From: Escherichia coli
GTDB lineage: Bacteria; Pseudomonadota; Gammaproteobacteria; Enterobacterales; Enterobacteriaceae
DNA: 64,000 nucleotides
NCBI RefSeq assembly: GCF_001677475.2
Contig: NZ_CP015229.1
Strand: one strand, 5' to 3'
Made by a program: the position numbers and the translations under genes. This document shows positions 59,408 to 60,217 of the stretch, piece after piece (within the stretch, counting starts at the first letter, position 1; each line of letters opens with the position of its first letter). The notes under the pieces are model-generated. The model did no database searches and had not been told where the DNA came from. It saw only the letters and a program-made list of their open reading frames with translations.

Positions 59408-59424
59408 AAGTGGTCTGACCTGAT
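59408..59424. promoter_or_regulatory. FadR operator in fadIJ promoter
   Basis: aagTGGTCTGACCTGat matches the FadR consensus core TGGTCNGACCTG. Confidence 0.6.
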
Positions 59425-59508
59425 CATAGTCTTAACCATTTTTTTACATTTAGCCAAGTGGAGAAAAGGGAAAGTGGGAGCTATGACACAGAGATAAAAG
59501 TAGAAGAG

Positions 59509-59543
59509 AAAATAAAACGCCCCTGCCAGCAACTGACAGGGGC
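59509..59543 (-). terminator. Rho-independent terminator downstream of yfcZ
   Basis: gcccctg-ccagcaactga-caggggc hairpin with plus-strand A-run (minus-strand U-run) adjacent. Confidence 0.55.
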
Positions 59544-59561
59544 ATACGTACCCGAGAGGAA

Positions 59562-59846
59562 TTAACGCAGACCCAGCTGGAAGATCAGCATTTCAGCTTC
59601 GCAGGCAAAAGTGAAATCGATATCCAGGCGCACACCGTCAGACTCTTCAGTGAAAGTCGGGGTGATTTTGCACGGTTCGGATTCCACGCTACGGGCTTTT
59701 TCAGTCAGCGCCGCCAGCGTTTGTTCTGCTTCTGCGCGGTTTGCAAACACGCGGCTATAAGACGCGGTGCAGTCGGAGTTGTCCATAATGGTGCCAACAT
59801 CCATACAGCAGCAAACCGGGGTTTCATCAGCACTACATTTACTCAT
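59562..59846 (-). CDS. yfcZ: UPF0381 small protein YfcZ
   Basis: ORF track extends to 59870; the ATG at 59844-59846 ([16 protein letters not shown], 94 aa) has a GAGGA Shine-Dalgarno upstream. Confidence 0.87.
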
Positions 59847-60091
59847 CGTTGATTTCCTCTGTATGTGCACCCAAGGTGCCAGATAAACGTTGTGGATATT
59901 TTACGCTTCCGGAAAGTGCTGCTCCAGTTGTTAATTCTGCAAAATCGGATAAGTGACCGAAATCACACTTAAAAATGATCTAAAACAAAATTCACCCGAA
60001 TCCATGAGTGCGCCACCTCCAAATTTTGCCAGCTGGATCGCGTTTCTTAGATCATATTTGAAAAAAGATAGAAACATACTTGCAACATTCC

Positions 60092-60108
60092 AGCTGGTCC
60101 GACCTATA
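60092..60108. promoter_or_regulatory. FadR operator in fadL promoter (second weaker site at about 60115-60131)
   Basis: agCTGGTCCGACCTAta matches the FadR consensus; adjacent ccaCTGGTCTGAtttct is a partial second site. Confidence 0.65.
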
Positions 60109-60217
60109 CTCTCGCCACTGGTCTGATTTCTAAGATGTACCTCAGACCCTACACTTCGCGCTCCTGTTACAGCACGTAACATAGTTTGTATAAAAATAAA
60201 TCATTGAGGTTATGGTC

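Follow-up and report, generated by a model that had tools for sequence, protein, structure and literature searches.

Conserved FadR operator motifs flanking yfcZ at the promoters of fadL and fadIJ in Escherichia coli

Gene arrangement between fabB and fadL

The stretch of Escherichia coli chromosomal DNA analysed here (64,000 nucleotides, hereafter the window) carries genes for fatty-acid uptake and β-oxidation on either side of yfcZ. The first gene of fadIJ, fadI, encodes the 3-ketoacyl-CoA thiolase and lies on the minus strand at 58069–59379 (ATG at 59379; TIGR02446 FadI, 903 bits), with fadJ downstream of it on the same strand at 55925–58069 (TIGR02440 FadJ, 1326 bits). The 94-residue DUF406 protein YfcZ is encoded at 59562–59846, also on the minus strand (TIGR00743, 8e-47; PF04175, 1e-36; RefSeq annotation). 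fadL occupies 60212–61558 on the plus strand (NF007988 FadL, 878 bits; RefSeq places the start ATG at 60218), and its product is identical to K-12 FadL at 445 of 446 residues. The order fadJ-fadI, yfcZ, fadL is the same in the K-12 and strain 042 annotations, and the K-12 gene order is followed from fabB to fadL in the stretches checked within the window. A 1-kb query spanning yfcZ, fadL and fadI was matched by 5,425 of 5,426 complete E. coli genomes with an identity of 95–99%. The gene for the regulator itself, fadR, is presumably placed far from the fabB–fadL locus in K-12, outside the window.

A strong intrinsic terminator of yfcZ was identified at 59517–59545 on the minus strand, in which a stem of 13 pairs (8 G-C) is followed by the T run TTTTATTTTCT. 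This terminator separates yfcZ from the fadIJ promoter, which is therefore a unit of its own in a 182-nt spacer, co-directional with yfcZ and approximately 700 bp away from the fadL operators. The initial annotation had described the fadIJ and fadL promoters as one divergent region; this description does not hold, since only fadL and yfcZ form a divergent pair and the fadIJ promoter lies beyond the yfcZ terminator. In the interval 59300–60300, no Rfam family was found; the only hit, to Spot 42 over the yfcZ terminator, was sub-threshold, scoring 19.6 bits where the gathering score is 80.

Two further segments of the window differ from their counterparts. Downstream of fadL, a 430-aa open reading frame at 61926–63215 (plus strand) encodes a YfdF variant whose N-terminal 130 residues are 91% identical to K-12 YfdF. 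It contains an internal duplication of about 70 residues and a (DI)n run, and it matched no Pfam or NCBIfam family. No complete E. coli genome among 5,426 exceeds 89% identity to the fimbrial (yfc-type) segment at 49600–50600, which could be detected in only 1,057 of them; the core genes flanking it show about 99% identity to the best-matching genomes and 95–99% to most. What occupies this conserved site is a divergent fimbrial allele.

FadR operator motifs and their scores in the window

The published FadR consensus is aaCTGGTCnGACC(T/A)Gtt (PMC9329746), and three boxes of this type are found around yfcZ. The box of fadIJ (the fadI box) lies on the minus strand at 59408–59424 (AAGTGGTCTGACCTGAT; ATCAGGTCAGACCACTT in the fadI sense), has the core GGTC-A-GACC, and ends 28 nt before the fadI ATG. 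The other two lie upstream of fadL on the plus strand. Operator 1 (OL1, AGCTGGTCCGACCTATA) is located at 60092–60108, 103 nt from the fadL ATG at 60212, and operator 2 (OL2, CACTGGTCTGATTTCTA) at 60116–60132, 79 nt from the same ATG, with a spacing of 24 bp from centre to centre. Each was read as an exact string at these positions. Both half-sites of the operator motif are present in the fadI box and in OL1; OL2 has an intact left half-site only, and its right half is degenerate. The initial annotation had proposed a box about 30 bp upstream of fadI and another at 60092–60108, both matching the FadR core, together with a weaker partial site upstream of fadL. The two boxes are exactly where it had put them, and the partial site is present as OL2, whose last base coincides with the end coordinate (60132) of the annotated interval; its description as weaker does not agree with EMSA, in which FadR has equivalent affinity for both fadL sites (PMC3460868), so that OL2 is partial in sequence and not weaker in vitro.

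A position weight matrix (PWM) was built from five FadR sites outside the test set, namely those of fadBA, fadD (two sites) and fabA, taken from the EMSA probe table of PMC4259882, and that of fadE, taken from the LldR gSELEX study. It was applied to 63,984 positions of the 64-kb window, with dinucleotide-shuffled 64-kb windows as the control. The fadI box ranks first among the 63,984 positions with a score of 16.6, which is reached in 1% of the shuffled windows. The second rank (15.6) belongs to the known fabB site at 40395–40411, which had been left out of the PWM, and the third (13.9) to OL1, a level expected 0.40 times in each shuffled window. OL2 ranks eighth with a score of 10.6, a level for which the expectation is 7.1 per shuffled window; by sequence alone OL2 is at chance level and not callable. 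What supports OL2 is the exact match between it and a published EMSA probe, as well as its presence in 80 of 80 loci (see below). We used the PWM because a search with the loose consensus CTGGTCNGACCWG, allowing up to two mismatches, was barely above chance, with 10 matches against 5.8 expected. The fourth rank is held by an OL2-like string at 50096–50112 on the minus strand (AACTGGTCTGATTTCAA), which lies within a 171-aa fimbrial open reading frame (49987–50502, minus strand) and is probably a chance match.

The fadL control region

The −10 hexamer of fadL, TATACT at 60105–60110 on the plus strand, does not vary among the 81 aligned sequences. It is overlapped by OL1, whose right half holds the first four bases of the hexamer (TATA). 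Further upstream on the same strand, the conserved block TTGCAACAT is located at 60080–60088. For K-12 fadL, one CRP site centred 157 bp upstream of the start has been validated by EMSA, and another centred 57 bp downstream of the start has been rejected (PMC3460868). The CRP-cAMP site corresponds to the conserved block AGTGACCGAAATCACA at 59952–59967 (plus strand, centre 59959.5), which was read directly from the sequence, and the rejected site to TGTTACAGCACGTAAC at 60165–60180. These two positions would place the fadL start at about 60117, and consequently OL1 at about −25 to −9 and OL2 at about −1 to +16. We take these positions to agree with the original fadL footprints. The repressor geometry at fadL is thus one in which OL1 lies over TATACT and OL2 over the putative start near 60117.

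The two fadL sites can be compared directly with bound DNA. The 35-nt EMSA probes fadL-FadR1 and fadL-FadR2 (PMC4259882) match the window exactly at 60082–60116, with OL1 inside, and at 60109–60143, respectively. According to Feng & Cronan 2012 (PMC3460868), two FadR sites occur in no fad promoters other than those of fadL and fadD, and 25–50 µM oleoyl-CoA abolishes FadR binding to the fadL sites; in that paper, the fadL EMSA is consistent with the earlier DNase I footprints. The fadL boxes of the initial annotation therefore coincide with FadR sites bound in experiments.

Other conserved elements were observed in the neighbourhood of these operators. In the fadL 5′ UTR (60140–60211), the block CAGACCCTACACTTCGCGCTCCTGTTAC is almost invariant over about 30 genera, with a conservation equal to that of the operators, and this block had no Rfam match. 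Conservation of OL2 as an RNA element instead of an operator was also considered and found no support. The part of the divergent spacer nearest yfcZ also holds a −10-like block that is conserved, GCGTAAAATATCC, at about 59893–59905 on the minus strand.

The fadIJ control region

A simple sigma-70 scan called neither the fadL nor the fadIJ promoter, its single match (60026–60055) being at chance level, and the hexamers were therefore assigned from conservation. The putative core promoter region of fadIJ, as placed by the conservation profile and the alignment, spans 59423–59457 on the minus strand, with a conserved TTGGCT at 59452–59457 and TAAGACT/TATGAT at 59423–59434, and at its 3′ end it adjoins or runs into the FadR box. 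The block GTTAAGACT at 59428–59436, upstream of the fadI box, is conserved; the TATGAT version of the −10 has no conservation beyond Escherichia. A TTGGCT-18-AAGACT promoter with its start at 59421 would put the FadR box at −3 to +14, and would centre a CRP-like site at 59475–59490 on −61.5. This CRP-like site (TGTGTCATAGCTCCCA, minus strand) is a conserved block upstream of the promoter and may be the CRP site that a review reports in the fadIJ promoter (PMC9329746). The study cited there for the site, Li et al. 2019 (PMC6390033), mentions neither fadI nor FadR in its main text. Collectively, the repressor geometry at fadIJ is that of a box abutting a conserved −10-like block close to the ATG, with the putative start inside the box.

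K-12 carries the same fadI box and the same promoter block ahead of it, and the differences are confined to the T-rich leader and to positions further upstream. Within E. coli, the T-rich leader at 59390–59407, between the FadR box and the Shine-Dalgarno sequence, is the sole variable part of the fadI promoter. It carries a 2-nt indel relative to K-12 and is unconserved between genera. Over 59380–59450, identity is 99% or higher in only 14 of 5,281 genomes.

The induction of fadIJ by long-chain fatty acids is FadR-dependent and its transcription start is a prediction from genome-wide mapping, according to review PMC9329746, and the passage of this review that cites Campbell et al. 2003 places a FadR site over the transcription start. 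The same review describes fadIJ as repressed by ArcA in anaerobiosis and controlled like fadBA, so that the label of "anaerobic" given to fadIJ in the initial annotation is contested. A literal full-text search with the fadI box in both orientations returned 0 papers, and the fadL and fadBA strings were found; no printed footprint or EMSA of the fadI box was found in the literature search. Direct FadR binding at fadI is the least documented step and rests on the citation of Campbell et al. 2003 in PMC9329746.

Conservation across the Enterobacteriaceae

A scan with YfcZ over one genome per species gave 80 loci from about 30 genera of Enterobacteriaceae. The arrangement of fadL, yfcZ and fadI is constant in these 80 loci where the contig allows it to be followed. 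The fadI box is the best PWM match of the yfcZ–fadI spacer in 72 of 72 loci, at 23–34 nt before the ATG. It is also the top conserved 17-mer of its spacer, with a mean of 0.98 versus 0.65 elsewhere in the spacer. At fadL, OL2 is present in all 80 loci and OL1 in 78, having decayed in Intestinirhabdus and Tenebrionibacter, and the spacing between the two is always 24 nt. Of 5,425 complete E. coli genomes, 4,777 carry exactly the same 65 nt in the operator region of fadL. In a published comparative-genomics study, fadIJ and fadL are FadR-regulon operons common to Enterobacteriales, Vibrionales and Shewanellaceae (PMC5343134), and the conservation of the FadR sites in the 80 loci agrees with this RegPrecise-type study.

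FadR control and other readings of the boxes

The three boxes are almost certainly the canonical operators for FadR at the promoters of E. coli fadL and fadIJ. Their sequence, position, score, conservation and identity to K-12 were established here. That FadR binds, that acyl-CoA releases it and that expression depends on FadR is taken from the literature, where binding at fadL refers to identical K-12 DNA. Both fadL and fadIJ are described as directly repressed by FadR, with sites over their start sites, and as induced by fatty acids (PMC9329746). The co-regulation of fadIJ and fadL from operators on either side of yfcZ, as proposed in the initial annotation, hence matches the published regulon (PMC9329746, PMC3460868).

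Other regulators of the same family could share these boxes. PdhR, which senses pyruvate, and LldR, which senses lactate, belong to the FadR subfamily of GntR regulators and recognise boxes of the TGGTnnnACCA type, and one or both might be the main or an additional user of the boxes in vivo. A gSELEX peak of LldR falls in the yfcZ/fadL spacer, where its authors assign exactly OL1 and OL2, and one of PdhR falls in the fadI/yfcZ spacer, with fadI and fadL mRNA lower in a pdhR mutant. However, the box assigned by the PdhR authors is a different and poor one (7/14) inside the start of the fadI coding region, and their fadI gel shift is a smear. Furthermore, gSELEX is an in vitro method with protein in excess, whereas there is firm published evidence that FadR binds and that induction by fatty acids depends on it (PMC9329746, PMC3460868). 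We consider this possibility rather unlikely on balance; cross-binding by PdhR or LldR, which has already been published, may come in addition to FadR control, not in its place.

The conservation could also be due solely to the core promoter and the initial transcript (−10, discriminator and +1), with no repressor involved, as OL1 has the TATA of TATACT in its right half, the fadI box adjoins the −10 region and OL2 spans the start. The overlap with the −10 could account for part of the conservation of OL1. The pattern of conservation is dyad-shaped, however: the OL1 half-sites CTGGTC and GACCTATA are 98–100% conserved, with GGTC and GACC invariant, while the central base is conserved at 15%, and this profile of fixed halves around a free centre fits the expected CTGGTCnGACC. 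The upstream half of OL1 sits in the promoter spacer, a zone that tolerates change, and the motif recurs at three places and again at fabB. Together with the acyl-CoA-released binding of FadR in EMSA (PMC3460868), these observations make an explanation by the promoter only highly improbable. Finally, a chance likeness to a short degenerate consensus, with no regulatory role, has a practically negligible probability: the near-chance yield of the loose consensus, the score of OL2 and the similar string within the fimbrial gene at 50096–50112 speak for it, but the fadI box and OL1 rank first and third in 64 kb exactly at fad promoters, the fadL boxes are identical to K-12 sequences bound in experiments, and position and sequence are kept over about 30 genera while the flanks diverge, so that conservation and published binding refute it for practical purposes.

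Under FadR control, the following sequence of events may be proposed. FadR, a GntR-family winged-helix repressor, binds as a dimer to a 17-bp imperfect palindrome of the consensus given above. At fadL, OL1 covers the −10 hexamer and OL2 the putative transcription start; at fadIJ, a single near-consensus operator would abut the −10 region and cover the start. Bound FadR would then occlude the −10/+1 region and exclude RNA polymerase. Once long-chain fatty acids are imported and activated, the resulting long-chain acyl-CoA would bind FadR and release it from the DNA. Uptake by FadL and the FadIJ β-oxidation complex would in this way be de-repressed jointly, with activation by CRP and repression by ArcA as further controls.

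FadR operators at fadL and fadIJ are already known, and this control is of textbook standing. For annotation, there is high confidence in labelling the three boxes and the fabB site at 40395–40411 as FadR sites, and the cross-genus alignment offers a clean phylogenetic footprint for both promoters. The soft spot of the literature examined is the direct biochemistry and the mapped start for the fadIJ operator.

As for yfcZ, the gene has fadL on one side and fadI on the other in every one of the 80 enterobacterial loci for which both flanks are available. It is conceivable, though we regard it as doubtful and quite unlikely, that yfcZ belongs functionally to the module of fatty-acid uptake and degradation, for example by being co-controlled from the divergent fadL region, on which FadR, CRP, ArcA, OmpR, LldR and PdhR would converge. 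If so, yfcZ would be more than a passive spacer gene.

Comparison with known systems

The closest counterpart of the fadL region is that of K-12 (DiRusso et al. 1993; Feng & Cronan 2012, PMC3460868). The whole 362-nt spacer between yfcZ and fadL is 100% identical to that of MG1655, and the likeness covers both 17-mers, the 24-bp spacing, the −10 hexamer and the CRP site. There is no difference in the operators or the spacer, and the FadL protein differs at one residue of 446. For the K-12 fadIJ (yfcYX) site, attributed to Campbell, Morgan-Kiss & Cronan 2003 in the relevant passage of PMC9329746, ATCAGGTCAGACCACTT and the upstream promoter block are likewise identical. In contrast, the leader of the window is 2 nt longer and has two substitutions, so that the distance from the box to the ATG is 28 nt here versus 26 nt in K-12.

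The fadBA operator, ATCTGGTACGACCAGAT in the probe of PMC4259882, shares with the three boxes the 17-bp layout, in which the TGGT...ACC half-sites surround a 3-nt centre. Whereas the fadBA operator is a perfect palindrome, the dyad pairs number 5 of 8 in the fadI box, 4 of 8 in OL1 and 2 of 8 in OL2, as read directly from the sequences. The fadBA operator is presumably the one crystallised with FadR (PDB 1H9T/1HW2).

With fabB included, the window contains four FadR sites. The fabB gene lies at 39108–40328 on the minus strand, and its FadR activator site, GGCTGATCGGACTTGTT at 40395–40411 (minus strand), is located 67 nt upstream of the fabB ATG within 40365–40421, where the published 57-nt fabB probe, which also carries a FabR site, matches with one mismatch. 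The activator sites of fabB and fabA share regulator and motif with those of fadL and fadIJ. They differ in position and effect, lying upstream of the −35 and activating, whereas the fadL and fadIJ sites lie over −10/+1 and repress (PMC9329746).
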